Shown here: piece after piece, positions 731 to 34,779 of the stretch
Position numbering within the stretch: position 1 is the stretch's first letter
Layout of the letters: the number at the start of each line of letters is the position of its first letter
Source of the DNA: a virus
Lineage: Duplodnaviria > Caudoviricetes
Strand: one strand, 5' to 3'
IMG/VR virus record: IMGVR_UViG_3300036779_000030
Location: 1-46,976 of that record
Length of the DNA: 46,976 bases
Program-made: the position numbers and the translations under genes
The notes under the pieces: model-generated
Database searches by the model: none
What the model was told of the DNA's origin: nothing
What the model saw: the letters and a program-made list of their open reading frames with translations, nothing else

Positions 731-738
731 AGGGAAAT

Positions 739-772
739 AAAAAAGCGCCCCCGAATTAACGGGAGCGCTTTT
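739..772 (-). terminator. Intrinsic terminator of the 777-1163 gene
   Basis: Minus strand reads AAAAGCGCTCCCG-TTAATT-CGGGGGCGC-TTTTTT (stem plus U-tract) immediately after the stop codon. Confidence 0.85.
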
Positions 773-776
773 CTAA

Positions 777-1163
777 TTACTTACCGTACGAGTTTACGTC
801 GGAATTTTGGAAATACCGGTAAGCCTTACTCGCGACCGTAACTAGCCGCGCGTCGACCTTTCCGAATTCCGGGAACTCGCGCTCTATCCAGGTCGCGAAT
901 TCCCGCATAGCCCTAGGAGCTTCCGCCGCGAGCTTATACCCGTTCGGCTTCCGCGCCGCTAGAGCGGCGTTCTCGGCTTCGATCTTAGCGAGCTTTTCCT
1001 TTAGCTCGGCTAGTTCGATTTCCGCCTTAGTCGGACGCGCGGCGCGCGGCTTAACCGGAGCGGAATTCTTCGCGGACTTTACGGCCGGAGCGGCTTTTAC
1101 CGGCGGGACCGTCTTAACGGTCGCGGCGGGAATAGCGACGACGGGCGTAGAGATAGCGTCGAT
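777..1163 (-). CDS. Hidden 128-aa basic protein, paralog of 4039..4506, probable ATC start (absent from the ORF track)
   Basis: Open frame IDAISTPVVAIPAATVKT...AMREFATWIEREFPEFGKVDARLVTVASKAYRYFQNSDVNSYGK*; C-terminus closely matches 4039..4506; in-frame TAA just upstream and no ATG/GTG/TTG near the 5' end; AAAGGCGA RBS 5 nt before ATC; own promoter and terminator. Confidence 0.88.
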   Translation of the reverse strand: MDAISTPVVAIPAATVKTVPPVKAAPAVKSAKNSAPVKPRAARPTKAEIELAELKEKLAKIEAENAALAARKPNGYKLAAEAPRAMREFATWIEREFPEFGKVDARLVTVASKAYRYFQNSDVNSYGK

Positions 1164-1275
1164 TTTAATCGCCTTTTTCTTTAGTTAGGAAGGGAATTTT
1201 CCCCGGCTACTCGCGCCGCGTACGGGCGCGAGGTTCGCGATTCGCGCGTTTCCGCGTTTTTCGCTTACGAGTAGA

Positions 1276-1304
1276 ACTCTACCGTACCCGAGCCGGAAAA
1301 TCTA
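1276..1304 (-). promoter_or_regulatory. Leftward sigma70-type promoter TAGATT-N17-TAGAGT
   Basis: Same architecture as 12 other candidate promoters; points at the hidden gene. Confidence 0.65.
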
Positions 1305-1565
1305 CGAAATTCGCGAGGATTTTTAGGAATATTCGGGAACCCCGCGACGTTCGCGCCGCCGAAAATCGAGTCGGACTCCGTTTCGCGCGGAGACGAACGC
1401 TACCGGCCGGAAAATCGGGGAGCTACCCGATTACCCGCGACGCGCTAGAAAATCCGCCTACGTCGATTTACGCGCCGTCTAGGCGTACGTCCGGCCGAAC
1501 GCGCTCCTACGCGCGTACGCGCGGCGCGGACGGACGGAAGGAACGCGGGCGCGCGGAACGTCGAC

Positions 1566-1870
1566 GGCTCCGGGAAAATTCCCGAAACTCAATATTTTTT
1601 CCGGGAATTCCGGAGCCGACGGTTCGCGTTCTACCGGCGCGAGGAAAAGTAGTCGACTACCAACGAGCGGAGGCGAAACCAATGGAGTACGACCGATGGG
1701 CGTTTGAGGTAGTCGACTACAGTAGATTGAAAATTTGGGGCCGGACTTCTAGGCGTTCGAAAACAATTTTTGAGTTTGATTCGGCTGTCGAAAATAAGTT
1801 TGAAGTTTGTCTATTGGGCTCGAAAACAATTTTTGAGGTTGACTACCGGCCTAAAAATGTAGTCGACGAC
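1566..1870. repeat. Inverted repeat, palindromes and phased direct repeats (origin- or pac-like)
   Basis: GGCTCCGG...CCGGAGCC inverted repeat 1566-1617; GTAGTCGACTAC at 1649 and 1709 (variant at 1859); TCGAAAACAATTTTTGAG at 1757 and 1820 (variant at 1788). Confidence 0.75.
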
Positions 1871-2042
1871 GGACGACCCCAATTGAGGACAGGCGAGCCA
1901 CCCCGACCGATGGGCGTTTCATCCCGCGCACATGAAAATGAAAAATGGCATCCCGCGCACAGCATGATGTGACTGCCCGCGCGGTAATGGACACCAGTCA
2001 GCCAGCCAGCCAACAAAACGCTCTGACCAGGTGAAACAAGAT

Positions 2043-2071
2043 TCGCGCGAACCGCGCCGGTAAGGTAGAAT
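2043..2071 (+). promoter_or_regulatory. Promoter TCGCGC-N17-TAGAAT
   Basis: CA/TG-free patch upstream of the first rightward gene. Confidence 0.65.
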
Positions 2072-2120
2072 CGACTTAGGCCGCGCGAAAGAGCGCGGCG
2101 ATGAGTAGGCAGGGAGCGAA

Positions 2121-2739: not shown

Positions 2740-2751
2740 GGAACCGGAATC

Positions 2752-3054: not shown

Positions 3055-3067
3055 GGACATCACCATC

Positions 3068-3403
3068 ATGCAGAACTCAGCACCAATCCCAGGCACAGAA
3101 CCAACATACTACATCCCAGAGTTTGGACCTGAGGAAACCATAACAATAGCCAACCTTGAGGTTGGTGACTTCGTCATCCGCATCCCGGCGCAAGACATGA
3201 TTCGTGGCCTCCTGGTCAATAGTGCCGTGCGCACCATCCAGGACAAGCATGGCTGGATCAAGCATCACAAAGGACAGAAGGGAGGCACACCAGTCTCGGG
3301 AAAGGAGATCAGCTTCCAGACAGAACGCACCAGGACATTCTCATGGCCTGACCATTACAGCGTCATCGTGCGCAGGCCAATCCTCCAACCTGACCAGGAT
3401 TAG
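3068..3403 (+). CDS. Hypothetical protein
   Basis: RBS AAGGA, operon packing. Confidence 0.7.
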   Translation: MQNSAPIPGTEPTYYIPEFGPEETITIANLEVGDFVIRIPAQDMIRGLLVNSAVRTIQDKHGWIKHHKGQKGGTPVSGKEISFQTERTRTFSWPDHYSVIVRRPILQPDQD

Positions 3404-3429
3404 GAGATTCCTCGCGCGGCGAGTAGACT
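3401..3429 (+). promoter_or_regulatory. Promoter TAGGAG-N17-TAGACT
   Basis: CA/TG-free intergenic patch; TAGACTAGCCCTAGG shared with the promoter at 6486. Confidence 0.65.
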
Positions 3430-3465
3430 AGCCCTAGGTCGCGAACGCCGACGAACGGAGCGGAA

Positions 3466-3708
3466 ATGCCGGAGAATGACGAGTACGAGCTGACGCTGGA
3501 TGAGTGCCTTAGCCAGGTCATCCTAAGGATGTATCATGGCGAGCTGTTGTCGAAGGATGATCCGTCCTACCCGGACGCCGTAGCCAGAATCCGCTTCGAC
3601 AATCCGCACTCGGCGACTGGCTGGGCAACCACGAGCAATCTTGATGGCCGGTTCGAAGATATCAGCTACGTCAGCCAGCCGTGTACCCTGGTCGTGAAGA
3701 TCCACTAG
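3466..3708 (+). CDS. Hypothetical protein
   Basis: RBS GGAG downstream of a promoter. Confidence 0.7.
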   Translation: MPENDEYELTLDECLSQVILRMYHGELLSKDDPSYPDAVARIRFDNPHSATGWATTSNLDGRFEDISYVSQPCTLVVKIH

Positions 3709-3720
3709 GAGCCAAATCGA

Positions 3721-3978
3721 ATGAAACATCCACTCCCGATCGGAACCCTAGTCACCTTTAGCGTCGATGGCATCTTCGATATCGACGGCTACATCTACGA
3801 CACCGTAGGTGCTCCCACCACGGAACAGCCAGACCGTGAATTCGCAGAACATGGCTGGTACTTCGTCATGAGCGACACCAACCTGTATGAGGTTGTCCCA
3901 TCCCTGATCCGCCTGCGAACGCAAACGGACACTACCCCAATGACGACACTTCAGGAGATTGAAGACGAGGAATGTTAA
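3721..3978 (+). CDS. Hypothetical protein
   Basis: RBS AGGAG. Confidence 0.7.
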   Translation: MKHPLPIGTLVTFSVDGIFDIDGYIYDTVGAPTTEQPDREFAEHGWYFVMSDTNLYEVVPSLIRLRTQTDTTPMTTLQEIEDEEC

Positions 3979-3979
3979 C

Positions 3980-4008
3980 TAGACGTACCGCGCCCGATCG
4001 GGTAAGCT
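3980..4008 (+). promoter_or_regulatory. Promoter TAGACG-N17-TAAGCT
   Basis: CA/TG-free intergenic patch with 17-bp spacing. Confidence 0.7.
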
Positions 4009-4038
4009 AGGCGTAGACCGACGAACGAAAGGCGAGAA

Positions 4039-4506
4039 ATGACCACCCAAGCCGAATCAACCACCGTCCCCACGCGCCGTCGTGGCCGCCGTACGGACAA
4101 GAACGCCGAGTCCAACCAGGGACCGTCCGGCCGCTCCGGTCCTGAGACGGTGACGACGACGGGCAAGCCGAAGGTTGTCCCGATCAAGAAGGAAATCCCG
4201 GCAACGCCGCTGACGCCTGCCCAGAAGGCTGCCGCTACCCGCGCGGCGAAGGCGCAGGCGATCAAGGAGCAGTCGGAAGCGCTAGCCGCCGAACTGGAGA
4301 AGGCGAAGCAGAAGGCAGCACCCAAGGAGCCGCGCGTCACCGGACACCGGATGTGGGCAACCAAGGAGATTCCCGGTGCCATGCTGCGGTTCACGAAGTG
4401 GATCAATCGCGAGTTCCCCGAATTCGGCGGCGACGTTGACCCACGAGTGGTTATGGTTGCCTCCAAGGCATACCGGTACTTCCAGAACTCAGACCTGAAC
4501 CCGTAG
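4039..4506 (+). CDS. Basic protein with C-terminal M..F..W...Y..FQ.S..N domain (putative DNA-binding)
   Basis: Own promoter, AAAGGCGA RBS and terminator; paralogs at 777-1163 and 17676-18116. Confidence 0.85.
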   Translation: MTTQAESTTVPTRRRGRRTDKNAESNQGPSGRSGPETVTTTGKPKVVPIKKEIPATPLTPAQKAAATRAAKAQAIKEQSEALAAELEKAKQKAAPKEPRVTGHRMWATKEIPGAMLRFTKWINREFPEFGGDVDPRVVMVASKAYRYFQNSDLNP

Positions 4507-4520
4507 GACTAGCAAACAAT

Positions 4521-4550: not shown

Positions 4551-4571
4551 CCAACTACGGAGAAACGGAAC

Positions 4572-5054: not shown

Positions 5055-5096
5055 TAACACCACCCAGCAGCGACTTGAGCAAGCAGTAATCACGAT

Positions 5097-5125
5097 TCGC
5101 TTTCGAGCCGTCGCGCGGGTAGGCT
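5097..5125 (+). promoter_or_regulatory. Promoter TCGCTT-N17-TAGGCT
   Basis: CA/TG-free intergenic patch. Confidence 0.65.
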
Positions 5126-5166
5126 AAGCGTAGTCGCCGCGCGGCGGCCGGAACGGAGAAACAATT

Positions 5167-5787: not shown

Positions 5788-5804
5788 ACACATAGAAACA
5801 AAAT

Positions 5805-5833
5805 TAGACTTCGCGCGTCCGCTCGGGTAGACT
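5805..5833 (+). promoter_or_regulatory. Promoter TAGACT-N17-TAGACT
   Basis: CA/TG-free intergenic patch, A-rich upstream. Confidence 0.75.
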
Positions 5834-5879
5834 CCTCTTAGGCCGGAAAAGTCCGGCCGCGAGAAAGGCGAAGGAAGCA

Positions 5880-6478: not shown

Positions 6479-6485
6479 TCAGGAT

Positions 6486-6514
6486 TCGACTTCCGCGCGC
6501 CTAGGGTATAGACT
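6486..6514 (+). promoter_or_regulatory. Promoter TCGACT-N17-TAGACT
   Basis: CA/TG-free intergenic patch. Confidence 0.75.
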
Positions 6515-6562
6515 AGCCCTAGGCGTTCGGGTAGCCGGACGGAACGAAAGGCGAGAAACAGA

Positions 6563-8664: not shown

Positions 8665-8666
8665 CA

Positions 8667-8876
8667 AGGCCGTAGGCGGCTCCTACGGCGCGCGGGAACC
8701 GGTACGTACCGGAATACTCCCGATCGGGGAAAACCCCGTAGCGTCCGGCTACGCCGCGCGTAGCGGGTACGGCGGGAAATCCGCGCCCGTAAACGGCTCT
8801 AGGACGAACCCTAGCGCGCCGGTAGCGGGAACCGGTAGGGTAGGTAAGCCGAGCCGTAGAGCGCTTCTACGGTCCT
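8667..8876. other. 210-bp CA/TG-free, hairpin-rich intergenic island
   Basis: No CA or TG; hairpins GCCGTAGG/CCTACGGC, CGTAGC/GCTACG, CCGTAGA/TCTACGG; weak promoter TAGCGC-N18-TAGGGT at 8812-8841. Confidence 0.85.
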
Positions 8877-10183: not shown

Positions 10184-10200
10184 TAACACGCGACTAGGCA

Positions 10201-10338
10201 TCGCGCTAGGATCGTCCCTACCGTTCGCGCGACGCGCGGTTAGGGGTAGCCTACGTTCCGAGTTAACCGGCGCGTACGGCTTCCCTAGCCGCGCGGGAAG
10301 GGCTATAATCGAGAGAGGTAGCCGACGGAAACGGCTAC
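10201..10338 (+). promoter_or_regulatory. 138-bp CA/TG-free island with promoter TTCCCT-N17-TATAAT (10281-10309)
   Basis: No CA or TG; consensus -10; several hairpins. Confidence 0.75.
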
Positions 10339-10377
10339 TGGAAAAAGGAGGGTTACCCTCCTGAGGAGGGATACGCC

Positions 10378-12197: not shown

Positions 12198-12410
12198 GTG
12201 AAACCAGGAACACGGGTGACCGTAAAACTACAAGGAAGCGATTCGCTGTTCGGCGGCAGAACTGGCACGGTAATCCCGATGAATAGTGAGCCTTGGGATG
12301 TCTGGGTGAAACTTGACAATCCTGTACCAGGTACAAACAACTACGCATTCGGGTTTATGGAAGATGAAGTTGAAGTCCTTGCGGACGATTCGACTACGCG
12401 GCCGGAGTAG
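12198..12410 (+). CDS. Small KOW/SH3-like hypothetical protein
   Basis: PGTRVTV...GRTGTV...VWVKLD pattern. Confidence 0.65.
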   Translation: MKPGTRVTVKLQGSDSLFGGRTGTVIPMNSEPWDVWVKLDNPVPGTNNYAFGFMEDEVEVLADDSTTRPE

Positions 12411-12418
12411 GCTATACT
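12390..12418 (+). promoter_or_regulatory. Promoter TCGACT-N17-TATACT
   Basis: CA/TG-free patch; upstream of the operon containing the glycosyltransferase. Confidence 0.75.
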
Positions 12419-12465
12419 CGGCTTAGGCGGTAAAGAGCCGTCGAAGAGTAGATATGGAATAGAAC

Positions 12466-13079: not shown

Positions 13080-13910
13080 ATGGATGTCGTCTATATCCCA
13101 ACTTTGAGCCGCACAGACATGCTCAAGAAGACCGTGCCACAATGGATCGATCAAGGTCTTCAGATACGGCTCGTGGTCGACCGCGCCGAGTTCAGCATAC
13201 ATGATAAGCTAAAGAGGGCAGAGGATTGGGGTAGGGATGTCTACATCTTGCCTCTCCCACTCTCCGGACGCGGTATGGGTTACGCGAGAAACTTCATCGT
13301 ACAGCACGCAAAGAAGACATCCCTCGTCTCAATCATCATGAGCGATGACGATGTCCACATACACACGAACTCGAACGCAAGCCTCCTCCTAGAAGAGGCA
13401 GAGAAGCCAGGAGTCCTCGGAGTCGGCGCAATCAGATCCCTTCATGACAGATTCACGAATGGCGCGATCTCCAAGAACCACGGCGCTATCCTGTGTCCTG
13501 GCGGATGGGGGTTCACCATCCACGGACTCAACATCGAGACCGCGCTTGCTTGCGGAAACTTTGACCCGAAGCTACATTCATTCGGAGAGGACGCCGAGCT
13601 GGCGCGGATGGGAATCATCAGAGGTATTCCGTGGCGCGTACACTGCGATGTCGAATTCGTATCACTCAACAAGCGGCTCGATCCCGGAGGGTTCTCGGCA
13701 AAATACCAAACACTAGAAGCACGACTAACAGCAGAATTGGAATGCCGGAAGATCATCCACAGAAAGTGGCCCAACTATACTTCCATCCCGGAAAAGAAGC
13801 CGCGTGTGGCATGGCAGAAACTCCTGAATGACTACATACCTAACTGGAAGGAAGCATCCGCAATTCACGGCGGATCTCTCGATCGACTGGAGATGACAGG
13901 TGGCGTATAA
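13080..13910 (+). CDS. GT-A fold glycosyltransferase (TET-associated/GREB1-like, candidate DNA glycosyltransferase)
   Basis: VYIPTLSR, ARNFIV, IIMSDDD (DxD), GEDAEL and PGG motifs. Confidence 0.75.
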   Translation: MDVVYIPTLSRTDMLKKTVPQWIDQGLQIRLVVDRAEFSIHDKLKRAEDWGRDVYILPLPLSGRGMGYARNFIVQHAKKTSLVSIIMSDDDVHIHTNSNASLLLEEAEKPGVLGVGAIRSLHDRFTNGAISKNHGAILCPGGWGFTIHGLNIETALACGNFDPKLHSFGEDAELARMGIIRGIPWRVHCDVEFVSLNKRLDPGGFSAKYQTLEARLTAELECRKIIHRKWPNYTSIPEKKPRVAWQKLLNDYIPNWKEASAIHGGSLDRLEMTGGV

Positions 13911-14434: not shown

Positions 14435-14757
14435 TGGCAAAAAGCAGCCCCGACATCACCGGGGAACGTCGGCTCGCGTACGAGATCAGAAACAAACGTG
14501 ATACGATCTTGTTCGCACTCGACAATCGTGACGCACACCCAAGTACCGCGCGGATCACGGACATACGACGCGAACTGTCTGTTCTACAGGGTATGGTCTG
14601 GGCATACCTATACGCAACCGAGAAATGGACGCATAACACACACCTCGAACTTACGGTATATACCAACGATATGGCTATGCTCTGGCTTAGCGTTGACCTT
14701 CTCAAGATGCGTAACCGGGCGTACGGAAAGCCAAAAACCAAGTCTGCACAAAATTAG
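14434..14757 (+). CDS. Hypothetical protein
   Basis: AAGGA RBS. Confidence 0.7.
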   Translation: MAKSSPDITGERRLAYEIRNKRDTILFALDNRDAHPSTARITDIRRELSVLQGMVWAYLYATEKWTHNTHLELTVYTNDMAMLWLSVDLLKMRNRAYGKPKTKSAQN

Positions 14758-14783
14758 CTTTCGAGCGGTCGGTAGGGTATACT
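14755..14783 (+). promoter_or_regulatory. Promoter TAGCTT-N17-TATACT, probably leaderless
   Basis: ATG at 14791 lies 7 nt after the -10 box; CA/TG-free apart from the ATG. Confidence 0.75.
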
Positions 14784-14790
14784 AGGGGTT

Positions 14791-20695: not shown

Positions 20696-21493
20696 ATGGT
20701 TAAGCTCCGCAGGGAAGACACCGAAGACCTGGACGTCGAGGAACTGGATGCCCTTGAGTACTCGACCGAGCAATTCGACACCTACGACGGGGAAGTGCCG
20801 CCCAAGGACATCGAGCTGTCCGGCTACGTCAAGAAGATGTGGTGGACCAGGACGCAGAACGGTGACCCGATGCTCAAGGTGCTCTGGGTCGCGGCCGAGA
20901 ACGATGGCGACTTCGAAGAGTACAACGACTGCCCGTTCTGGCTGAACTACGCCCTGATCGGCGGTGCCAAGTTCCGATGGGCACCGTTCATGGAGAACTA
21001 TGGCTTCACCCTGAAGCAGGTGAAGAACAACACTGACGTCCAGGACAAGGACGACCAGAACGGAGCGCCCATCAACAAGATCGGCAGCTTCCGCCCCGGC
21101 GAGGAAAACGACGAAGCCTGGGCGCGTATCATCACCGACCGGGAGCGGTACAACGGGGAATGGAAGTCCGCCGTCAAGGAATGGCTTCCATGGGAGGATA
21201 GTGAGGAGCCGCAGGACGAGGCAGAAGAAGAGGAGGAACCAGAAGAGGAAGAGGAGCCAGAACCCGAGCCGGAACCCGCTAGGCGCGGCGGAAGAACAAC
21301 GTCCCGCGCGGCCCGTAGCGCGCCGGAGAAGCCCGCCGCTAGGGGAGCGCGTACCGGTACCCGATCGGCGGCGAAAGAGCCGGAGAAGCCGTCTCCGCGC
21401 GGCGCGCGAGGTACCCGGACGGCTAAGCCCGCTGCCGCCCCGGCGCGCGGTCGTGGTCGTGCTCGCGGCGACAGCAACGAGCCTCCATTTTAG
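20696..21493 (+). CDS. ssDNA-binding / annealing protein-like
   Basis: Position after Sak4-like gene; OB-like core; acidic then basic tail ending EPPF. Confidence 0.65.
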   Translation: MVKLRREDTEDLDVEELDALEYSTEQFDTYDGEVPPKDIELSGYVKKMWWTRTQNGDPMLKVLWVAAENDGDFEEYNDCPFWLNYALIGGAKFRWAPFMENYGFTLKQVKNNTDVQDKDDQNGAPINKIGSFRPGEENDEAWARIITDRERYNGEWKSAVKEWLPWEDSEEPQDEAEEEEEPEEEEEPEPEPEPARRGGRTTSRAARSAPEKPAARGARTGTRSAAKEPEKPSPRGARGTRTAKPAAAPARGRGRARGDSNEPPF

Positions 21494-21574: not shown

Positions 21575-21937
21575 ATGGAAGGTCCACTCGACAGCATCAG
21601 GTATCTCACCGAAGTCATCCGGAGCCTGAACACAGAAAAAGGATGGCGTGAGAAGTTCGGCGGCGACATAGTGCCGCCACGTACCGGTCCTTGGTTCGCG
21701 GCGTACGTCGCCCTGGCCCAGTCGGAACTGTCGGAAGCCCTAGACGCCTACCGGAACAAGATATGGTCTGATACAATAGACCACAAGCCGGTCGGGGTAG
21801 GTCCTGAGCTAGCCGACGCGCTCATCCGGATTCTAGACATGGCCGACATCTGGGGTATCGACCTACACTATGAGCTAGAACGCGTCATCGCGTACGGCCA
21901 TACTCGACCGTACCAACATGGAGGCAGGACTCTCTAG
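21575..21937 (+). CDS. MazG-like nucleotide pyrophosphohydrolase
   Basis: ALAQSELSEALDAYR...ELADALIRILD. Confidence 0.85.
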   Translation: MEGPLDSIRYLTEVIRSLNTEKGWREKFGGDIVPPRTGPWFAAYVALAQSELSEALDAYRNKIWSDTIDHKPVGVGPELADALIRILDMADIWGIDLHYELERVIAYGHTRPYQHGGRTL

Positions 21938-22710
21938 TGGTCTGCATCATGATCCTTGGATGTGGCCCTGCAGGACTGGCGGCAGCGGAAGCTGCCGTCA
22001 GTTCCGGCCATTACGTAGTTATAGCAAGCAACAATAACGCTCCTAGCAGAATATATGGTTGTCAGTATCTTCACGCACCGGTGCCCGGATACGAATGGGT
22101 TCAACATACCCGAGTCGGCTACTGGCTAAACGGTACGCCGGAACAGTACCGACTCAAGGTTTACGGCGAGAAATGGACGGGCAAGGTTTCGCCGGAAGAC
22201 TTTGTCGGAGAACATGACGCATGGGATATTCGTGCGACGTATACAGCTATGTGGGCAAGACTCCACGAACTCAAGAAAGTACGCTTCTTGAAGATTTCCC
22301 AGATCACTAATGGCGAAATTGACAGCAACGTATACCGCTTCCATCCCGAGAAGATCATCTCGACCATACCCGCGCGAGCACTGTGTCACAACAAGGCACA
22401 TGAGTTCTCGTTCCACAATATATGGGCCATAGGCAGTACCTCCAGAGGGCTTGAAGCTGAAGACACGATCATATGTGACGGTACGGAAGACCATACATGG
22501 TACCGAAATGCCTGTGTATTCGGATACCGCACTACTGAATGGTCACATCCACCAACCGGCGGCGAGAATACGGCTACTGTCGTGAAACCACTAGCGACTA
22601 ACTGTAACTGCTATCCACATATCTACCGGATCGGCCGGTACGGAAAGTGGCAGAAGAGCTACCTAGTCCACAAAGCATACCCGGACGTAATGAGGATTCT
22701 CCGTGACTAG
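21937..22710 (+). CDS. FAD-dependent oxidoreductase (UDP-galactopyranose mutase-like features)
   Basis: ILGCGPAGL dinucleotide fold, GCQYLH, IISTIP and GRYGKW motifs. Confidence 0.7.
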   Translation: MVCIMILGCGPAGLAAAEAAVSSGHYVVIASNNNAPSRIYGCQYLHAPVPGYEWVQHTRVGYWLNGTPEQYRLKVYGEKWTGKVSPEDFVGEHDAWDIRATYTAMWARLHELKKVRFLKISQITNGEIDSNVYRFHPEKIISTIPARALCHNKAHEFSFHNIWAIGSTSRGLEAEDTIICDGTEDHTWYRNACVFGYRTTEWSHPPTGGENTATVVKPLATNCNCYPHIYRIGRYGKWQKSYLVHKAYPDVMRILRD

Positions 22711-23365
22711 CCAAATATTTAGGAACGGTGCGCTGCGCGGTGTTGTTGCTCTAGATATCGACGGCACCCTAGGCGACTACCATGGTCACTTCCTGAAGTT
22801 TGCCGAGGGATGGCTCGGCCGCACTATGCCGTCACCGGACACCATAAACCCAGGACTTCGGCTATCGGAGTTCATGAGCATAGATCATGCCGTCTACCGA
22901 AAGATCAAACTAGCTTACCGACAGGGCGGTATGAAGCGAACGATGCCGGTGTACGACGGAGCGAGCGCACTGACTGCCTGGCTCAAGGACCAGGACATCG
23001 AGATATGGATATGTACGACTCGACCGTACAATCGTTTGGACAATATTGACGAAGATACCCAGGAATGGCTAAATCGGAATCTAATTGACTTCGATGCAAT
23101 TCTATGGGATGATTCCGAAGGACATGGGAAATACCACGAACTAGTTCGGCAGGTAGGACTCAACAGAATCATAGCCGCCGTAGATGACTTGCCGGAACAA
23201 CTCCATCAAGCTCGCGCAGCCGGTATACAGAATCTATACCTTCGCGCACAGCCATACAACCTAAGAGGTTCTGACAGGGACGGCATGATTCGTGTCCATA
23301 GTCTTCCAGCACTCAAGTCATTCCTGAGTTTCCATATAGCCGCCTGGAAGGAAAAGACGGGCTAG
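22703..23365 (+). CDS. HAD-superfamily phosphatase (5'-nucleotidase-like)
   Basis: DIDGT, TTR and VDD motifs. Confidence 0.85.
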   Translation: MTSQIFRNGALRGVVALDIDGTLGDYHGHFLKFAEGWLGRTMPSPDTINPGLRLSEFMSIDHAVYRKIKLAYRQGGMKRTMPVYDGASALTAWLKDQDIEIWICTTRPYNRLDNIDEDTQEWLNRNLIDFDAILWDDSEGHGKYHELVRQVGLNRIIAAVDDLPEQLHQARAAGIQNLYLRAQPYNLRGSDRDGMIRVHSLPALKSFLSFHIAAWKEKTG

Positions 23366-23391
23366 TAATCGGCCCGCCCGCGCGGTATAAT
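23363..23391 (+). promoter_or_regulatory. Promoter TAGTAA-N17-TATAAT
   Basis: CA/TG-free intergenic patch; consensus -10. Confidence 0.75.
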
Positions 23392-23419
23392 AGAGGTAGC
23401 CGAACTAGAAAGCCGGGTA

Positions 23420-23695
23420 ATGAAGAAAACATTCTGCGATGTATGCGAAGAACAATGCATCAATACCACGATTACGATGCGCGCGGTAATGGTACATCAC
23501 ACCAGCGACGGGAAGTTTGCTGGCGAAGATGAGTATAAAGAAGTCGAGATTTGCCTAGACTGCTTCAACAAAATCAAGGAACGCGTACCGAAGGCATTCA
23601 TTCTCATCCATCGCGAATTCGTCGATGAGGAAGCAAGAATGTCACCGAGCATAACAGAAGCACCAGTTCGAGTAGAAAGTACAGGACGTGGCTGA
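23420..23695 (+). CDS. Small Zn-binding hypothetical protein
   Basis: CDVC...CLDC. Confidence 0.75.
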   Translation: MKKTFCDVCEEQCINTTITMRAVMVHHTSDGKFAGEDEYKEVEICLDCFNKIKERVPKAFILIHREFVDEEARMSPSITEAPVRVESTGRG

Positions 23696-24263
23696 GTTCC
23701 CTCATCCCATTACGCTCTGGGATCATTTCAATATCGCGATGATCCGCGACTTCGCGCAATGGCAAGATACCGAGCCGGAGCCGAGCGCGGTATACCTCCA
23801 TCTCAGCCACGGCCGTAAGCATATCGTATCGCCTCCCGGCGTCAATTGGATTCATTACGACTTCCCGGAATGGGATGCGAACAGAGGACTTATACCAGCT
23901 AACGACGAATCCGTAAGCGGTATCTTCACCTCGCACGCCATGGACCATTACGCACGTCCCATATGGTTCCTGTCCGAAGTACAGCGCGTTCTGAAGACCG
24001 GAGGCTGGTTCGTCAACATTGCCGGACACTACACCAGCGAGCTAGCACACAACTGCTTCGAACACCGTACGCGGTTCGCGATCGACGTCTGGAAGAACGC
24101 CTTCAGCGACCATTATTATGACCAGACCGGCGCGGTAGATGGCGATACCGGAATGGGATGGAAATTCGAAATCGGCTTTAACATGATCATGGGCCTGAAG
24201 GAAAACAACGTCGTCCTTGTGACGCAACTCATCAAGACCGACCACGTAGTGAGGTACGAATGA
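23688..24263 (+). CDS. Class I SAM-dependent methyltransferase-like protein
   Basis: IPANDESVSGIFTSHAMDH...EVQRVLKTGG; motif I degenerate (HLSHG). Confidence 0.65.
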   Translation: MAEFPHPITLWDHFNIAMIRDFAQWQDTEPEPSAVYLHLSHGRKHIVSPPGVNWIHYDFPEWDANRGLIPANDESVSGIFTSHAMDHYARPIWFLSEVQRVLKTGGWFVNIAGHYTSELAHNCFEHRTRFAIDVWKNAFSDHYYDQTGAVDGDTGMGWKFEIGFNMIMGLKENNVVLVTQLIKTDHVVRYE

Positions 24264-24946
24264 CCACCAACAAGTGTCTCGTTATCGGCGGTACCTCCGG
24301 CATCGGGCAAACAACGTCCGTACTAATCGCCGAGAGGATGAAGTGTGAAATAGACACACCAACGAAGGATGAGCTAGACGTCATGTACGTACTGGATGTC
24401 GAGTCGTACATCCATGCGCATGGACCATACTCACACATCGTCTACTCGGCCGGGCTCAATGGGCTTCATTGGATTAAGGATTCTGACATTTGCGCTATAA
24501 CGCACAATCTGCTCGCGGTTAACTGTACCGGATTCATCAGCACTATCTCCGAGCATATCCGCCTCTTCCCGGAAGCACCAATATCGGCCGTTGCCGTTAG
24601 CTCTGACGCCGCGCGGATTCCGATGCGCGGTTCCGTCGCCTACTGTACTTCTAAGGCCGCCTTGAACATGGCCGTGAAAACTATGGCACGAGAACTAGCA
24701 CCGCGCCACAGGATTAACGCGGTCGCGCCGGGGATGGTCGAGGATACTCCCATGACGAAGTACATTGACGAAACCCTCCCCGGATTCCGTAACTGGAGCG
24801 AGTCATTCGCTCGCAAGTATGAGAAGCGAAATACCCCTACCGGCAGAAGAGCTACCAAACAGGAAGTAGCCGAGACAATATTCTGGGTCCTTATCGGGCC
24901 GCCACAAATGACCGGCGCCATCATCGAAATCAACGGAGGCAAATGA
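24260..24946 (+). CDS. Short-chain dehydrogenase/reductase
   Basis: GGTSGIG, YCTSK, INAVAPG, INGG. Confidence 0.9.
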   Translation: MTTNKCLVIGGTSGIGQTTSVLIAERMKCEIDTPTKDELDVMYVLDVESYIHAHGPYSHIVYSAGLNGLHWIKDSDICAITHNLLAVNCTGFISTISEHIRLFPEAPISAVAVSSDAARIPMRGSVAYCTSKAALNMAVKTMARELAPRHRINAVAPGMVEDTPMTKYIDETLPGFRNWSESFARKYEKRNTPTGRRATKQEVAETIFWVLIGPPQMTGAIIEINGGK

Positions 24947-25257
24947 TGGCCACGAATGAGAAAGGGCAAAGAGGGGTAAAACCATCAAGCGTAAAAGGAC
25001 CAGATAAAACAACAACAACTCCATACGAGGGAATAAACTTGAGATGGCAAACGTGGATCACAGGAATAGATGCTATCAAGAGTGGCTATAAAAATGACTT
25101 TTTTAAAATTATACGAGATTTCCATAGGGAAACAAGTCAAGGATATATCAACAGGAATGGACCTGACAGGAGAGAAAACGCGCAGAAACAGCTAAATGAT
25201 ATGAAGGCAGATCTCGATGACCAACAACGACTACTAGATGAATGGAGCGGCAAATGA
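24943..25257 (+). CDS. A-rich hypothetical protein
   Basis: ATGA coupling on both sides. Confidence 0.6.
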   Translation: MMATNEKGQRGVKPSSVKGPDKTTTTPYEGINLRWQTWITGIDAIKSGYKNDFFKIIRDFHRETSQGYINRNGPDRRENAQKQLNDMKADLDDQQRLLDEWSGK

Positions 25258-26195
25258 TGAGCGAGTGGACTAGTCACGAGGAAATGGAGCAGGATTATAT
25301 GCCACCGACAAAGAAGAACCTTCCAATGAAGTGGGCCGACGAGGCAATGTACGCGGCGGCTCCGCTCTCGGACGGTACCGAGCCGGTACGTCCCCGCGTA
25401 ACCCTCGTATCGATGACGGCCGACCCGCTTCGGGTTATGGCAGCCGCATCGGAGTTGTACCAGGGAGGTGTCTACTCGGACCCACGACTCATCTCACACG
25501 ATCAGGCCTTGAAGTGGCTAGATGGATTCCGGAAGAGCAAGATCAGCGCTCCGCTGGAGTTCATATCCCTCCACTTCTTCATCGAAGGTGTGACGCGGGC
25601 CTTCACGCACCAGCTCGTTCGGCAACGTACGGCGGTGTTCGTCCAGGAGTCAATGCGCTTCGCGGTGAAGGAGAACGCCGCATTCGAGATAGTCATGCCT
25701 CCTAGCATATCAATCCTAGCCGAAGACCATCCTATGCGCGTCCTCTGGAAGCAGGCTGATGAATATGACGCCTGGGTATATAACTCGCTAATCGCCGGCG
25801 GAATACCAGCCGAGGATGCACGAGGCCGCCTTCCAACTAACATCGCAACTCGTATTCACTACCACACCGACCTACGCAATCTAGTCAACCAGTCCGGGAT
25901 GCGGCTCTGCTCACAAGCACAAGCCGAATGGAAGCAGGTCTGGGCCGAATTCATCAAGGCCATCCTTAGCTACGGCCCGCCGGAGGAATCCTGGCAACAG
26001 CGAGAGATCGGCAAGCTATTTAAGCCGGTCTGTTACCAGACGGGCAGCTGCGGCTTTAACGGCCCGGCCGATCGCTGGTGCGTCATCCGCGACCGGGTTA
26101 ATGCGCACTCGGCTGCCGGAGATCCCCCGGACACCTGGACAGACATAGACCCGCGCGAGCCACTAAAGGCGAACGCAGCAAGGATGCCACAGTGA
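25254..26195 (+). CDS. thyX: ThyX-like flavin-dependent thymidylate synthase homolog
   Basis: PLEF, TRAFTHQLVRQR...QESMRF, EDARGRLP and RLCSQAQAEW motifs. Confidence 0.85.
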   Translation: MMSEWTSHEEMEQDYMPPTKKNLPMKWADEAMYAAAPLSDGTEPVRPRVTLVSMTADPLRVMAAASELYQGGVYSDPRLISHDQALKWLDGFRKSKISAPLEFISLHFFIEGVTRAFTHQLVRQRTAVFVQESMRFAVKENAAFEIVMPPSISILAEDHPMRVLWKQADEYDAWVYNSLIAGGIPAEDARGRLPTNIATRIHYHTDLRNLVNQSGMRLCSQAQAEWKQVWAEFIKAILSYGPPEESWQQREIGKLFKPVCYQTGSCGFNGPADRWCVIRDRVNAHSAAGDPPDTWTDIDPREPLKANAARMPQ

Positions 26196-31260: not shown

Positions 31261-31536
31261 ATGTCACTTACCGCCCCGGAACGCGAGACGATCATCAACT
31301 TCAATGACGGCGAGGATATCGCCTACATCTATACCGCACAACGCAAGATTATCACCAAGCTCAAGAAAAATCCCTCCGCCACATTGAAAGAAGAGGGCGT
31401 GTTCGAGGGTACTGCTTGGGCAAGATTCACCATACCGGCAAACCTCATAAGCTTCAGGGTCGCCCGGCCTAAGCGCGAACTATCTCAAGAACAGCGAGCC
31501 GAGATCGGGGAGCGACTAAAGCGTAACCGTACGTAG
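31261..31536 (+). CDS. Hypothetical protein (start at MSLTAPERET)
   Basis: AGGA RBS; last rightward gene. Confidence 0.75.
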   Translation: MSLTAPERETIINFNDGEDIAYIYTAQRKIITKLKKNPSATLKEEGVFEGTAWARFTIPANLISFRVARPKRELSQEQRAEIGERLKRNRT

Positions 31537-31716
31537 CCGCCCGCTAGCCTCCGAAACGACGCTAGCTAGCGTATCCGAGAGACCCTACCCCGCCCCGGAG
31601 CGGTTACCGCTTCCCTAGGGGGTTCGCTCCCCGTTCGTCGCCTAGGAACGTCCCCTACGCCCCGTCCCTAGGGGGTCCGCCTAGCCCCCCGGCCCCGGCT
31701 CCGGTACGAACGGGTC
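31494..31716. other. 223-bp CA/TG-free island at the convergence of the two arms
   Basis: No CA or TG; CCCTAGGGGG twice, palindromes ACGCTAGCTAGCGT and AGCGGTTACCGCT. Confidence 0.85.
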
Positions 31717-32307: not shown

Positions 32308-32315
32308 GACTTCTC

Positions 32316-32486
32316 CTAATGGCCGAGCTTTTCCCTGTGCTCGGCGAGTCTCTTGAACGGCACCAGCGAGTAACACCCGGGGCACACGACTACCCGAAGC
32401 GTTCCGTCCGACTTGATGATGTCGGCGAATTCCTCTATTCCATCAGTCTCGATGATCAGCCGAACCGGAACATCTATTGTGTTCAC
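32316..32486 (-). CDS. Small C2H2-like hypothetical protein
   Basis: GAGGAG RBS before GTG; CPGC...H...H. Confidence 0.6.
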   Translation of the reverse strand: MNTIDVPVRLIIETDGIEEFADIIKSDGTLRVVVCPGCYSLVPFKRLAEHREKLGH

Positions 32487-32554
32487 TTTCTTCTCCTCTG
32501 CGAGAAGGCCGTAGCAGGCACGTTTCAGTACCTGCCACAGCCATATTGCCGCCC

Positions 32555-33349
32555 TTACGTCACCGGGGCGTTCCACGTCGCGTTCCACGTCTCCGGCCCG
32601 ACTACCCCGTCAACGCCCAGCCCCTTCTCCGACTGGAATTGACGGCAAGTACCTTCTGATCCGTCGCCGTATACGCCATCGACGTCGATCGACCAGCCGC
32701 GCGAGGACATCTTGGATTGCCACGTTATGACATCGGCACACATGTAATTGTGGCCATACCCCGGCCCGAAGTAGTCGACTGTCATGGCTGGCGCGGCACC
32801 TCCCCCTCCACCCCCTCCGGATGGCGGCGGCTCCGGCGTACCACCGCGCGCTAGGTCGAGAACGTAGTCCATGGGGAATCCGTTTCCGCAGTCAGAGTGA
32901 CCGCCACCCCATGAACCTAGATCGCGGTGCTGACACACACCATGACCGCCACCCTGCGCCTGTGAAGAGGAAAGCTTGGTGATCGGGATGCCGAACTTGC
33001 CTGCCTCCTCCTTCACCCAGTCGGCCGCGTTCAGGAGCATGTTGTTGTGGCTGTTCCGCCACGTCGAATCCGACCAGGAGGCAAAGCCGCACAGCTCGGC
33101 GGCTACGGACATCGGGTTGGCATTCCCCTGCGTCCATGCCTTATTGCCGCGCGAGACGTACTCGCCGATCTTGCCTCGCTTGTCGTCGATACCGACGTGC
33201 GAGGAGACGCCGACATCCTGCTGGAAGTATGAGCCCAGCGACTCGTATGTTGTCGAACCCTCCGCCGTATGAAGGACGATGAGGCGCACTGCCGAACCAC
33301 CGCGCGACGAATAGTTTGGCGACGGGATCCATACTCGCTGGAGTGCCAT
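32555..33349 (-). CDS. Endolysin: N-acetylmuramoyl-L-alanine amidase plus peptidoglycan-binding domain
   Basis: IVLHTAEG, SSH, AWTQ, HSDCG; DGVYG...FQ...GLGVDGVVGPETW. Confidence 0.92.
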   Translation of the reverse strand: MALQRVWIPSPNYSSRGGSAVRLIVLHTAEGSTTYESLGSYFQQDVGVSSHVGIDDKRGKIGEYVSRGNKAWTQGNANPMSVAAELCGFASWSDSTWRNSHNNMLLNAADWVKEEAGKFGIPITKLSSSQAQGGGHGVCQHRDLGSWGGGHSDCGNGFPMDYVLDLARGGTPEPPPSGGGGGGGAAPAMTVDYFGPGYGHNYMCADVITWQSKMSSRGWSIDVDGVYGDGSEGTCRQFQSEKGLGVDGVVGPETWNATWNAPVT

Positions 33350-33350
33350 G

Positions 33351-33506
33351 TTACTGCCACCCTTCCTGAATTGTCTCTCCGTGCGCCCAGTGTTCGTTCT
33401 GTTCCTCCGGAGGTGGCTCCCGGAACGGCCGGACCTGCCGAAGTTCCGGTTGTGCCGGGTCGCGCGGTGCCTCGTCCTGCTGCTCGATGTCCTTGTTCTT
33501 AGGCAT
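33351..33506 (-). CDS. 51-aa hydrophilic hypothetical protein (MPKNKDIEQ...)
   Basis: Read manually; abuts the endolysin start. Confidence 0.55.
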   Translation of the reverse strand: MPKNKDIEQQDEAPRDPAQPELRQVRPFREPPPEEQNEHWAHGETIQEGWQ

Positions 33507-33639
33507 CAGACCCTACTTCCTGGTAGCACTTGTACTGTCTTTGCTTGTACAGATTCCATTCGCGCTTCAACTGGTCATAGATGGCAGTGGCTATCACTAT
33601 GACGACACCGCCTATCCCGAACCACATGATCACGACCAT
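33499..33639 (-). CDS. 46-aa single-TM protein (holin-like candidate)
   Basis: MVVIMWFGIGGVVIVIATAIYDQLKREW...; ATG 6 nt after a -10 box. Confidence 0.55.
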   Translation of the reverse strand: MVVIMWFGIGGVVIVIATAIYDQLKREWNLYKQRQYKCYQEVGSDA

Positions 33640-33645
33640 ACCGCT

Positions 33646-33674
33646 AGTCTACGCCATCGAGACGGCTACGTCTA
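33646..33674 (-). promoter_or_regulatory. Leaderless promoter TAGACG-N17-TAGACT for the lysis cassette
   Basis: Matches the promoter consensus; overlaps hairpin ACGGCT/AGCCGT. Confidence 0.7.
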
Positions 33675-33690
33675 GAGCCGTTTCGCCTAG

Positions 33691-34779
33691 CTACGGTCCT
33701 AGGCGTGTACACCTAGAACCGACAGCGTTAAGAGTCTGCCCGGTAGCAGCAGCACCCCATGTACTGTTGATCCTTATATTGTGAGATTTCGTGGTGTCAA
33801 TGGCGACGTTGGACACAGGAGCAGCATTGAATACTGCAGAATTGGTAAACAAGGCATTCATGCCATTTTGCTTTATCGTTCCGTATAGGTATCCAAGTAC
33901 TGTTCCGCTCGCACCGATAGATTGACATTGTATGCCAACCTTAATCTGGCCATTAAGGCCGACTCCAGCAGCAACGATAGCGCCGCCAATGGTATCCGAA
34001 ATTGTATACGTCGTCACGCCATCGATCGAGAGTCCCATTGTTAGCGTTTGGCCTTCCATCGTACATTGCCATGGCATGTCGATCTCGTAAATAGTGCCGA
34101 CCTGTAGGTCGTTTGCTGGGATCGTATATATCGCCGTAATTGTGTTCGGTCCTGACAAGTTATTGTTTGTCCTGATGTTTGCATCAGTCTGGGATGTACC
34201 CGGCAGAACAGACCACACAGATCCATTCCACGAGTACACCTTCATAGTATCTACTTCTAGCCCGAGACGTACATTCGGCGGCGACGGATGGTATGTTGAC
34301 TGCATCGAAATGACGGAACGCGCGGAATACTGTCTTTGGTCAGACAGATTTGTTAGTGTACCATCACTGTTGGATACCCAGTTTGAGATTGGAATGTCCC
34401 ATAGCCCGGCAGGTGTTTGCTGTAGTGGAGGCATTACCGGAGAGCCGCTAGGCGTACCGGTGATGACCACTGGCGAGACTACGCTCGGCGACGTTGATGC
34501 CGTACGATTAAGCCTCAACACGAGACGATCAAGCCGGTTCTGCGATGACGCGGCCGGAATAGGTACTGAAACAGGAGCATCACAGCTCCATAGTTGTCCC
34601 TTGATAAGAGCCTGCCCGGCACTAATAACAGCATTACGCCCGGCTGTATCAAGAGATGGTGTGAGGCTACTAGAACCATCGATGCCATCATATATGCCCG
34701 CCGACGACATAAAGGATTCCCAGTCAGCAGTAGTAGTGAGCTGGTTAAACCCACTCGGCCTAGCATCGTATGTTACCAT
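33691..34779 (-). CDS. Minor tail / receptor-binding protein
   Basis: NRLDRLVLRL...TGTP...PPLQQ...WDIPI baseplate-upper-protein-like N-terminus; position. Confidence 0.8.
   Translation of the reverse strand: MVTYDARPSGFNQLTTTADWESFMSSAGIYDGIDGSSSLTPSLDTAGRNAVISAGQALIKGQLWSCDAPVSVPIPAASSQNRLDRLVLRLNRTASTSPSVVSPVVITGTPSGSPVMPPLQQTPAGLWDIPISNWVSNSDGTLTNLSDQRQYSARSVISMQSTYHPSPPNVRLGLEVDTMKVYSWNGSVWSVLPGTSQTDANIRTNNNLSGPNTITAIYTIPANDLQVGTIYEIDMPWQCTMEGQTLTMGLSIDGVTTYTISDTIGGAIVAAGVGLNGQIKVGIQCQSIGASGTVLGYLYGTIKQNGMNALFTNSAVFNAAPVSNVAIDTTKSHNIRINSTWGAAATGQTLNAVGSRCTRLGP

Follow-up and report, generated by a model that had tools for sequence, protein, structure and literature searches.

Several phages, among them M6, ViI, phiW-14 and SH-Ab 15599, carry thymidine that is hypermodified through a 5-hmdU kinase and an amino acid or amine transferase (PMC8989533, PMC6449724, PMC13458397). 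The reported context of the modification is TG/TC in M6 and TG in SH-Ab 15599, and the precedent of partial thymidine hypermodification that an earlier, sequence-only reading of the present DNA had invoked thus extends to TG specificity (PMC6449724, PMC13458397). Base J has been tied to transcription termination (PMC10057400). Little is understood of how the RNA polymerase of the host deals with phage DNA that is heavily modified. Here we analysed a stretch of 46,976 nucleotides (the window) from a soil phage. The phage has purged TG and its complement CA from promoter-like sites and one small hidden gene, and we consider it reasonably probable that this is because a bulky adduct on virion DNA, probably a sugar on the T of TG, would hinder host RNA polymerase.

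Across the window, CA and TG occur near expectation (odds 0.97 and 0.99; density 0.122), and their density is normal over 95% of the genome. Positions 731-1660, however, contain 4 in 930 bp, where ~112 were expected (111.7 when adjusted for composition over 727-1660), and 8667-8876, 10201-10338, 21299-21432 and 31494-31716 contain none. These counts reproduce those of the earlier reading, which had described CA/TG-free islands in discrete places. For a gap as long as the longest one, 906-1590 (684 bp), the expected number is ~1e-35; the longest in 40 Markov-2 simulations was 89 bp. Gaps of at least 60 bp numbered 18, against a simulated mean of 1.0 (n=40). Within the islands, all eight trinucleotide classes containing CA/TG were depleted, the next lowest dinucleotide was AT at 0.46, and CG and TA rose 1.96-fold and 1.54-fold, respectively. 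Because both CG and TA replace the lost pairs, selection fits better than one mutational direction. Gaps of at least 60 bp in CG and AA were also about twice as frequent as under a geometric null, so a few small CA/TG patches (25349 in ThyX, 28973 in DnaE) may be due to chance. The sequence facts on the islands hold whichever mechanism is right.

Table 1. Islands, promoter-like patches and genes in the window.
Feature	Position	Strand	Basis or remark
Large CA/TG-free island with hidden gene, its 5' non-coding region and likely terminator	727..1660	.	4 CA/TG vs 111.7 expected
Likely intrinsic terminator after hidden gene	739..772	-	9-bp stem, one mismatch, then T6; read from sequence
Hidden gene, 130 codons, predicted ATT start	777..1169	-	open frame, 73% identity to that of G002
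Purine-rich RBS directly before ATT	1170..1182	-	within 33-nt block identical in G002
Weak candidate promoter of hidden gene	1276..1305	-	GTAGAT, 18 bp, TAGAGT; read from sequence
CA/TG-free promoter-like patch	2038..2101	+	-10 at 2066
CA/TG-free promoter-like patch	3396..3466	+	-10 at 3424
CA/TG-free promoter-like patch preceding paralogue	3974..4039	+	-10 at 4003
Paralogue of hidden gene, ATG start, internal control	4039..4506	+	45% identity; CA/TG 51 observed vs 50.7 expected
CA/TG-free promoter-like patch	5092..5161	+	-10 at 5120
CA/TG-free promoter-like patch	5800..5877	+	-10 at 5828
CA/TG-free promoter-like patch	6481..6558	+	-10 at 6509
CA/TG-free intergenic island, many short palindromes	8666..8876	.	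base count
CA/TG-free island with promoter-like site	10200..10339	+	-10 at 10304; counterparts in G001 and G002
CA/TG-free promoter-like patch preceding DUF6011 and TAGT genes	12381..12454	+	-10 at 12413
TAGT-family glycosyltransferase, GT-A fold	13080..13910	+	PF20691 E 1.9e-8; phrog_842
Nearly CA/TG-free promoter-like patch over SNF2 start	14750..14829	+	-10 at 14778
SNF2-type helicase	14791..16737	+	PF00176, PF00271
Remote third paralogue of hidden-gene domain	17379..18116	+	HMM E 0.0075; CA/TG 70 vs 71.6 expected
Nucleoside 2-deoxyribosyltransferase-like protein	19240..19647	+	weak match, PF05014 E 0.0013, under cut-off
CA/TG-free island in Arg/Ala/Pro-rich 3' end of gene 20696-21493	21298..21433	.	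base count
Nucleotide/sugar cluster	21575..26195	+	profile matches
Cluster genes: pyrophosphatase, HAD/5'-nucleotidase, methyltransferase, SDR	21575, 22703, 23688, 24260	+	
FAD flavoprotein resembling UDP-galactopyranose mutase	21937	+	
CA/TG-free promoter-like patch	23346..23420	+	-10 at 23386
ThyX, RQR instead of RHR	25242	+	Thy1/ThyX PF02511 E 2e-29
CA/TG-free island at early/late operon convergence, over both gene ends	31493..31716	.	base count
Nearly CA/TG-free promoter-like site preceding lysis genes	33646..33706	-	-10 at 33651; counterparts in G001, G002

The largest island holds an unannotated gene that the sequence-only reading had overlooked. ATG, GTG, TTG and CTG each contain TG, and the apparent start codons of this gene and its homologues are ATT (window and G002), ATC (G015) and GTG (G021); gene callers overlook the gene because its start appears to be ATT or ATC. 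The coding sequence retains three CA/TG (in one Met, one Trp and one Gln codon), the minimum that its protein permits. In the codon-preserving comparison that the earlier reading had proposed, the expectation was 37.2 ± 4.5 and the lowest of 20,000 synonymous draws was 20, far above the observed count; the 59 other genes tested and the paralogue all had z above -2.8. The view of the islands as control elements was thus upheld where they coincide with promoter-like sites and has to be widened for the largest, in which the constraint spans a transcribed gene body in addition to protein-binding sites. Consensus terminator scanning made no call at 739..772, and the candidate promoter at 1276..1305 was not among the sites reported by the promoter matrix scan; a strong promoter-like site (score 24.1) lies upstream of the G021 homologue.

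The hidden protein has a Lys/Ala/Pro-rich N-terminal tail, a long helix and a two-helix domain (model pLDDT 83, pTM 0.44). As a predicted homodimer this domain scored 0.48 (best control 0.00), beyond the mark that 20 of 30 solved pairs attained, as against 1 of 23 single chains. The runs had at least 65% of contacts in common, with pLDDT at least 72 and an interface mainly of residues 86-128. Among solved folds the best match was the TraM N-domain (VIA Z 4.0, rmsd 5.1, 51 aligned), followed by several ribbon-helix-helix (RHH) and HU rows at VIA Z 2.6-3.2, and Foldseek with the model gave no match at E 0.001 or better. The product is predicted to be dimeric and is likely DNA-binding.

At ten promoter-like sites CA/TG are purged over a stretch that begins near -38 and ends immediately ahead of the start codon. 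Most lie upstream of small early-type genes, and the genes downstream have normal CA/TG content. Two patches of the earlier reading stood in modified form: that at 14755 consists of one gap of 43 bp and another of 37 bp, parted by the ATG, and that at 33646 is depleted over 51 bp, while its promoter-like site retains one TG in the spacer. The islands at 8666, 21298 and 31493 were not promoter-like by the matrix scan; the first is possibly an origin or a protein-binding site. The island at 21298..21433 is partly due to amino-acid composition (whole-gene z only -1.4) and has counterparts in gaps of 106 and 107 bp in G001 and G002, and that at 31493..31716 corresponds to 175-bp gaps in both. At the 14 sites found in G002 with a matrix that scored only the -35 and -10 regions, the core contained 16 CA/TG versus 98.6 expected, compared with 81 versus 75 just upstream.

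The DNA-type glycosyltransferase noted earlier is a TAGT-family GT-A enzyme, and the nucleotide/sugar cluster includes a ThyX and a mutase-like flavoprotein. The TAGT protein matched PF20691 with 34.9 bits (cut-off 27.5), its model (pLDDT 93.5) resembles GT-A enzymes, and R70, D89-D91, D171 and the E-D motif are conserved in the alignment. Phage DNA glycosyltransferases and JGT are reported to carry this R..DDD..ED motif, in which the window protein has EDA instead of EDY/F (bioRxiv 2023.12.21.572611). ThyX was the sole synthase match by Pfam on window proteins, which included no ThyA-fold dUMP hydroxymethylase; its RQR motif is also present in island-free relatives. No TET/JBP was found among window proteins, and PF12851 was found in 0 of 5 relatives (four at least 90% complete) by a scan run without a known positive. 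No Pfam or PHROG match to a C5 DNA methyltransferase was found in the window, nor, among the 76 window proteins of this incomplete genome and with general profiles only, to 5-HMUDK or aGPT-Pplase/AADT.

We compared the purge across relatives. G002 has a CA/TG-free gap of 689 bp at the matching position. Yet the island alignment of the two shows differences at 286 of 817 positions, and a new CA/TG would arise from 36% of possible substitutions. Purged homologues of the hidden gene occur in three diverged viral contigs: G002 (4 vs 36.7 expected), G021 (1+3 vs 20.6+13.7) and G015 (1+2 vs 28.6+18.7). In the G012 homologue only template-strand TG was depleted (CA 5 vs 18; TG 22 vs 17.6); this implicates the TG strand if blocking adducts lie on the template. 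In two distant relatives, TG is avoided only where the next base is not C: G018 lacks TG-not-C for 958 bp (~1e-38), across a gene that is not homologous to the hidden one, and G017 lacks it for ~400 bp (1e-14); the window has lost all flanking contexts, whereas G018 retains TGC. That the avoided word differs by relative (TG, TG-not-C, HTGD) suggests a drifting, enzyme-like specificity.

The idea that islands track the modification genes was not borne out as it stood. TAGT is present in each of the five large-island relatives, four of which had been found through it, but the TAGT carriers G005, G011, G013 and G014 (97-100% complete) lack such an island, and Gordonia phage Gibbin (Lambovirus) has a weaker HTGD island in its first gene without a TAGT match. 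Promoter-like sites of G011 were nevertheless depleted (26 vs 82.8). Hidden-gene homologues were not purged in G003 and G011 or at 11 of 12 metagenome loci, many of which may be the ordinary paralogue, and the 50 kb examined in each of seven phages of the related actinophage group contained no large strict CA/TG island. No TG-free islands occurred in the whole genome of M6 or in the 100 of 143 kb covered of SH-Ab 15599, so TG hypermodification alone is insufficient to produce them. The proposal that the target word is selected out at control sites is supported by its recurrence despite divergence; its link to TAGT is loose.

In the mechanism that we favour, the promoters and a first-read "pilot" gene would have lost TG because the adduct hinders host RNA polymerase. 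The ThyX homologue, with a presumed hydroxymethylase activity, would make a hydroxylated pyrimidine such as hmdUMP, and TAGT would attach a sugar after replication in TG context, perhaps supplied via the mutase-like flavoprotein and SDR. At entry, unmodified promoters would be the only ones that host holoenzyme opens, and the purged gene the only one that it reads in full; the product of this gene may aid reading of the modified genome or may simply be needed first. The purge extends over a promoter segment at the promoter-like sites and over the whole unit at the hidden gene. Against this mechanism stands the normal CA/TG content of the genes that follow purged promoters, which means that elongation has to traverse modified sites at some stage; in addition, the hidden gene's own promoter in the window is weak. 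A bolder version, which we regard as tentative, is a self-imposed epigenetic lock with its key: every TG would be glycosylated (hmU from a ThyX-fold hydroxymethylase, sugar by TAGT), host polymerase would stall, and the dimer from a pilot gene stripped down to a non-TG start would free it.

The same sequence signature is expected if the adduct were placed late, on progeny genomes, silencing them for packaging; the islands would then serve, at that late stage and not at entry, to leave the promoters, one regulator and an origin or packaging site active. The three islands that are not promoter-like, the nearly purged lysis promoter and the location of the large island close to one end of the contig in the window, in G015 and in G021 agree with such timing. 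We consider it unlikely, as early-type genes follow most purged promoters and the first early gene of cultured relatives appears remotely homologous to the hidden gene (E 1.3e-4 in Yara, but only E 7 in Gibbin). A host defence or DNA-modifying toxin could instead target the word on incoming DNA, with the hidden gene as an anti-defence factor that has to be read ahead of the attack and the phage's glycosyltransferase incidental. First-entering regions of T5 and T7 reportedly avoid host restriction sites, and both the failure of islands to follow TAGT and the island-free TG-modified phages would suit this scenario. It is quite unlikely, given a dinucleotide target at normal density over most of the genome, promoter-patch limits that sharply match a polymerase footprint, and TAGT in 5/5 large-island relatives, biased as that sample is.

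A modification of the C, the A or the G of the CA/TG pair in place of T, for instance a hydroxymethyl- or hydroxy-cytosine that is glycosylated in CpA context, appears very unlikely. In its favour, the two complementary dinucleotides give a symmetric signal, some phages glycosylate 5hmC with TAGT-like GT-A enzymes (bioRxiv 2023.12.21.572611), and 5-hydroxy-dCMP can be a product of thymidylate synthase homologues (PMC13326640); against these stand the missing matches to C5 DNA methyltransferase and TET, the G012 strand bias and the published TG context of T adducts. An origin of the islands without any modification, through DNA-shape selection, low complexity or a mutation bias that acts locally, is highly improbable. 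The islands are indeed rich in CG repeats and palindromes, a 141-bp gap in PBI1 is an acidic low-complexity repeat, and unrelated words reach 1e-7 to 1e-10 in multi-pattern scans of other genomes. However, significance here is 1e-35 to 1e-38, the hidden coding sequence sits at its exact CA/TG minimum with an altered predicted start, CG and TA both rise, and TGC is lost in the window yet kept in G018.

If the favoured mechanism is right, the genome reveals the DNA that a phage cannot afford to have modified, a polymerase footprint and one whole gene, and this makes a testable question. It also puts forward a candidate factor, the hidden protein, which belongs to no known family. The findings suggest that modified phage genomes and their target motifs might be spotted by sequence alone; under the lock version, each avoided word would give the enzyme specificity of its phage. 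They also raise a possible ThyX and TAGT route to base J-like thymidine without TET/JBP.

The likeness to the 5-hmdU kinase phages lies in partial, sequence-specific T modification, mainly at TG (or TG/TC), which is only inferred here; the window instead has a ThyX-fold synthase and a glycosyltransferase as the transferase, and avoids TG but not TC. With base J (JBP/TET and JGT) and phage 5mYOX and GT-A clusters it shares the TAGT/GT-A motif (PMC10057400, bioRxiv 2023.12.21.572611, PMC13229309). JBP2 has a SWI2/SNF2 domain and the window an SNF2 helicase near TAGT, although TET/JBP was found neither in the window nor in five relatives. The placement is also reversed, with a putative genome-wide adduct and unmodified islands as the exception. 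Compared with pre-replicative ThyS and glycosyltransferase systems (T4, RB69, DLP3), the window has a ThyX homologue whose RQR is shared with island-free relatives. DnaE, SNF2 helicase, flavoprotein, HAD and ThyX are shared, in similar gene order, with actinophages PBI1 and PLot (Mycobacterium cluster D), Onyinye, Gibbin (Gordonia Lambovirus), Microbacterium EF, Streptomyces Yara, Nocardia P3.1 and Arthrobacter Wollypog; this group, unlike the window, has no TAGT match, and Lambovirus has a weaker, HTGD-poor first gene. In vertebrate CpG islands, too, a DNA word is placed by function and marks DNA that stays unmodified. T5/T7 and CpG islands thus resemble the window in distributing a word according to what is read first or stays unmodified, whereas here the word is a dinucleotide that has been purged along an entire coding sequence, the predicted start codon included, and the modifier is likely the phage's own.

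CA and TG occur at expectation across the window as a whole (odds of 0.97 and 0.99). The sequence-only reading had counted four CA/TG in 731-1660 and none in four other large islands, and these counts were exact. Such gaps were also more frequent than in simulated sequence: 18 gaps of at least 60 bp were observed, compared with a mean of 1.0 in 40 Markov-2 simulations, where the longest gap was 89 bp. For the longest gap in the window (906-1590), the expected number is ~1e-35. When 17 islands were pooled, each of the eight trinucleotide classes that contain CA/TG was close to zero, and CG and TA were raised 1.96-fold and 1.54-fold, indicating that the dinucleotide is the avoided unit and is lost through transitions affecting either base. 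Because CG rose as much as TA, a RIP-like CA-to-TA mutation process was ruled out. Avoidance of TC and of the degenerate word TS was tested in the window and was absent. In the related viral contigs G001 and G002, the gaps matching islands 21298 and 31493 span 106-107 and 175 bp.

Alignment of the large island to G002 revealed a minus-strand codon-like pattern, corresponding to a hidden gene (Table) with a hairpin and T run 3' of its stop. The predicted protein is 73% identical to its G002 homologue and 45% identical to the product of the ordinary gene at 4039. The only CA/TG in the hidden gene lie in the codons for its one Met (ATG), one Trp (TGG), and one Gln (CAA), and dynamic programming confirmed that three is the minimum for this protein. 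The codon-preserving shuffle proposed earlier gave 37.2 +/- 4.5 CA/TG and never fewer than 20 in 20,000 synonymous draws, against 3 observed. The paralogue at 4039 contains 51 CA/TG against 50.7 expected, and none of 60 genes tested fell under a z of about -2.7. Between the window and G002, 286 of 817 aligned island positions differ, and 36% of possible substitutions in the island would create CA/TG; the purge is thus maintained, not merely inherited.

Searches with the hidden protein gave no tblastn match in 50,697 phage records (E 1), no family for this member in Pfam or PHROG, no usable match in the ESM Atlas, and nothing significant by fold, the weak hints being ribbon-helix-helix and HU-like (Z at most 4.0). 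Clustering at 50% leaves its family with 62 representatives. In the structural model, a disordered basic tail is followed by a long helix and two short ones. Residues 45-130 were predicted as a homodimer with a score of 0.48 (0.00 for the best control), a mark attained by 20 of 30 pairs of known structure and by 1 of 23 single chains; runs agreed on at least 65% of contacts, and pLDDT was 72 or higher. The protein is most likely small, dimeric, and either DNA-binding or nucleoid-like.

Several repeats surround the large island (Table). The 10-nt repeat CCGATGGGCG, which itself contains TG, occurs seven times here and seven times at the equivalent place in G002, and is present in the contigs G003, G012, and G021; a phage protein may bind it. 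The CA-rich stretch, with comparable stretches close to where G011 begins and beyond the island of G015, may perhaps be a densely modified insulator, and the A/T-tract repeats are possibly a bent-DNA element.

Table. Positions of features and CA/TG counts in the cores of matrix-selected sites
Feature	Sequence	Position	Strand	Detail
Hidden gene	Window	1169 (ATT) to stop at 777	minus	130 residues; purine-rich ribosome-binding site directly before ATT
CCGATGGGCG	Window	106, 228, 259, 421, 672, 1693, 1907		Around large island
CA-rich stretch	Window	481-726	plus	41 CA vs 5 TG in 246 bp; just downstream of hidden gene's terminator
A/T-tract repeats	Window	1757-1842		Three of 23 nt, spacing 31-32 bp; just outside island
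Direct repeat	Window	4959-5041, 5624-5706		83 nt, 90% identical; 3' ends of two small early genes
Split DNA polymerase III alpha	Window	27199-31015		PHP gene and catalytic gene, ~590 bp apart
Methyltransferase-like gene	Window	31684-32307	minus	End of late operon; 3' end inside 31493 island; kept in relatives (weak Pfam matches)
Pro/Gly-rich repeat protein	Window	44992-45900	minus	Adjoins major capsid gene
TAGT genes	G004	3018-4798		Two, in tandem
Island	G018	59498-60456		Covers 202-residue gene unrelated to hidden gene
Gene 42	Gibbin (L153)	15933-16538		First early gene
Core CA/TG, matrix sites	G001			17 observed, 68.9 expected
Core CA/TG, matrix sites	G015			25 observed, 81.5 expected
Core CA/TG, matrix sites	G011			26 observed, 82.8 expected
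Core CA/TG, matrix sites	G021			8 observed, 33.9 expected
Core CA/TG, matrix sites	G012			12 observed, 31.3 expected
Core CA/TG, matrix sites	G003			14 observed, 28.8 expected
Core CA/TG, matrix sites	G005			15 observed, 19.5 expected

The proposal that islands mark control elements applied to part of the set. Ten islands contain a promoter-like site of the form TT(C/A)GNN or CTAGNN, 18 bp, TAnnnT, but the islands at 8666, 21298, and 31493 match no promoter well. The -35 boxes of these sites lack the TG and CA of TTGACA. CA/TG usually returns just 5' of the -35 box and again close to the start codon (at it or slightly upstream), limits that roughly match a holoenzyme footprint plus leader. A consensus sigma-70 scan of 600-2200 found no promoter. 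As the window sites had been chosen from gaps, relatives were tested with a matrix scoring the -35 and -10 regions only. In G002, the pooled cores of all 14 matrix matches held 16 CA/TG against 98.6 expected, and the sequence just upstream held 81 against 75. Of the 56 core positions scored in each contig, 20 are biased by the matrix itself.

We surveyed 21 viral contigs, mostly found via TAGT or flavoprotein genes; two were read without their final 111 and 654 bases. A large island is present in five, and the specificity of the purge drifts among them. TG is avoided in G002, G021, and G015, where each island holds a purged homologue of the hidden gene (apparent starts ATT, GTG, and ATC, respectively), while TG is avoided unless C follows in G018 (958 bp, ~1e-38) and G017 (~400 bp, 1e-14). 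The G018 island gene is unrelated to the hidden gene, so the purged slot is filled by a different protein. In the G012 homologue, only template-strand TG is depleted (CA 5 vs 18; TG 22 vs 17.6), and the G003 and G011 homologues are not purged. Of the 13 loci from metagenomes, 11 were unpurged and one was purged (L102, which has the same island as G021); the other was a false match. The remaining surveyed contigs were fragments or had no large island. Islands had been expected to track the modification cluster; all five large-island contigs do carry TAGT, but G005, G011, G013, and G014 (97-100% complete, TAGT-positive) have no large island.

The nearest cultured phages are actinophages at some distance, with 35-49% protein identity (cluster D, Onyinye, Lambovirus, EF, Yara, P3.1, and Wollypog), and a megablast search with window 1-24000 matched none of 50,697 phage records. 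Neither TAGT nor a large strict island was found in 50 kb of each of seven cultured relatives, and a TAGT search of five whole cultured-phage records, run without a positive control, found none. A 141-bp gap in PBI1 was ruled out as an island, being an acidic repeat, and CG-repeat-rich intergenic stretches of P3.1, Wollypog, and Yara showed no single avoided word. In Gordonia phage Gibbin, the degenerate word HTGD is missing over 330 bp of gene 42 and its leader (1e-8.6), a pattern picked post hoc in a scan whose background attains similar values. The gene has 7 HTGD against 23 (z -4.7), the lowest of 22 genes. Applied unchanged, the pattern again placed this gene lowest, of 13 in LuckyLeo (z -4.2; 90% DNA identity to Gibbin) and of 12 in Rumi (z -3.3; 79%). 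No depletion was seen in the first early gene of P3.1, Wollypog, or Onyinye. On visual comparison gene 42 is similar to the hidden domain, but it scores only E 7; the Yara counterpart scores 1.3e-4. Gibbin gene 42 provides a cultured model in which the phenomenon can be tested.

The window record is an incomplete phage genome of 46,976 bases, with the early and replication arm rightward and structural genes leftward. Its glycosyltransferase belongs to the TAGT family (PF20691, confident GT-A model), reportedly defined by Iyer et al. in 2013. It had no tblastn match in 50,697 phage records (E 1e-3), and its profile matched no solved structure by sequence below E 0.37. Other genes encode an SNF2 helicase, pyrophosphatase, flavoprotein, HAD nucleotidase, methyltransferase, SDR, ThyX, and split DnaE, the split also occurring in Onyinye, RikSengupta, and Wollypog. 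The flavoprotein, without a solved relative by sequence below E 0.2, resembles a mutase on feature scores of 0.92.

We consider it probable that a modification explains the islands: ThyX would produce a hydroxylated pyrimidine, TAGT would glycosylate T in TG, the adduct would hinder host polymerase, and the purged gene would be the first read. The ThyX step is proposed because hmdUMP is a trapped ThyX intermediate and no other source was present; the ThyX RQR motif is non-discriminating. That the modified base is C, A, or G is very unlikely in our view. T is reported to be modified at TG in SH-Ab 15599 (PMC13458397) and at TG/TC in M6, ViI, and phiW-14 (PMC6449724). As positive controls, M6 (whole) and SH-Ab 15599 (100 of 143 kb) showed no significant CA/TG or TS gap, so an amine adduct at TG is insufficient for islands. 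If modification is the cause here, the adduct must be more obstructive, and a sugar or oligosaccharide would fit; YerA41 is reported to carry an oligosaccharide-like T adduct of ~1 kDa (PMC9023294), and base J has been tied to Pol II termination (PMC10057400). Genes behind purged promoters retain TG, so under this reading elongation must pass adducts, either at a cost or after the purged gene's pilot protein is made.

The islands could instead belong to a late silencing switch, which we regard as unlikely. Avoidance of a host defence target seems quite unlikely. CG and AA gaps are also ~twofold above the geometric null, so a few small CA/TG patches may be chance; a compositional artefact as the general explanation is highly improbable.

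Searches of mostly open full texts turned up no modified phage described as having promoters or genes free of a dinucleotide, and the passages or abstracts of PMC8989533, PMC13229309, PMC13326640, and PMC11550810 describe none. The accessible description of cluster EF (PMC7302621) names ThyX but not DNA modification. On the features tested, the system falls outside both the kinase/AADT and the TET/JBP pathways, and TET/JBP was not found in the window or five relatives. The enzymes of the window are of known kinds, and its TAGT shares the R..DDD..ED motif with phage DNA glycosyltransferases and trypanosome JGT (bioRxiv 2023.12.21.572611). A gene recoded to its dinucleotide minimum, start codon included, appears to match no kind in the literature found.
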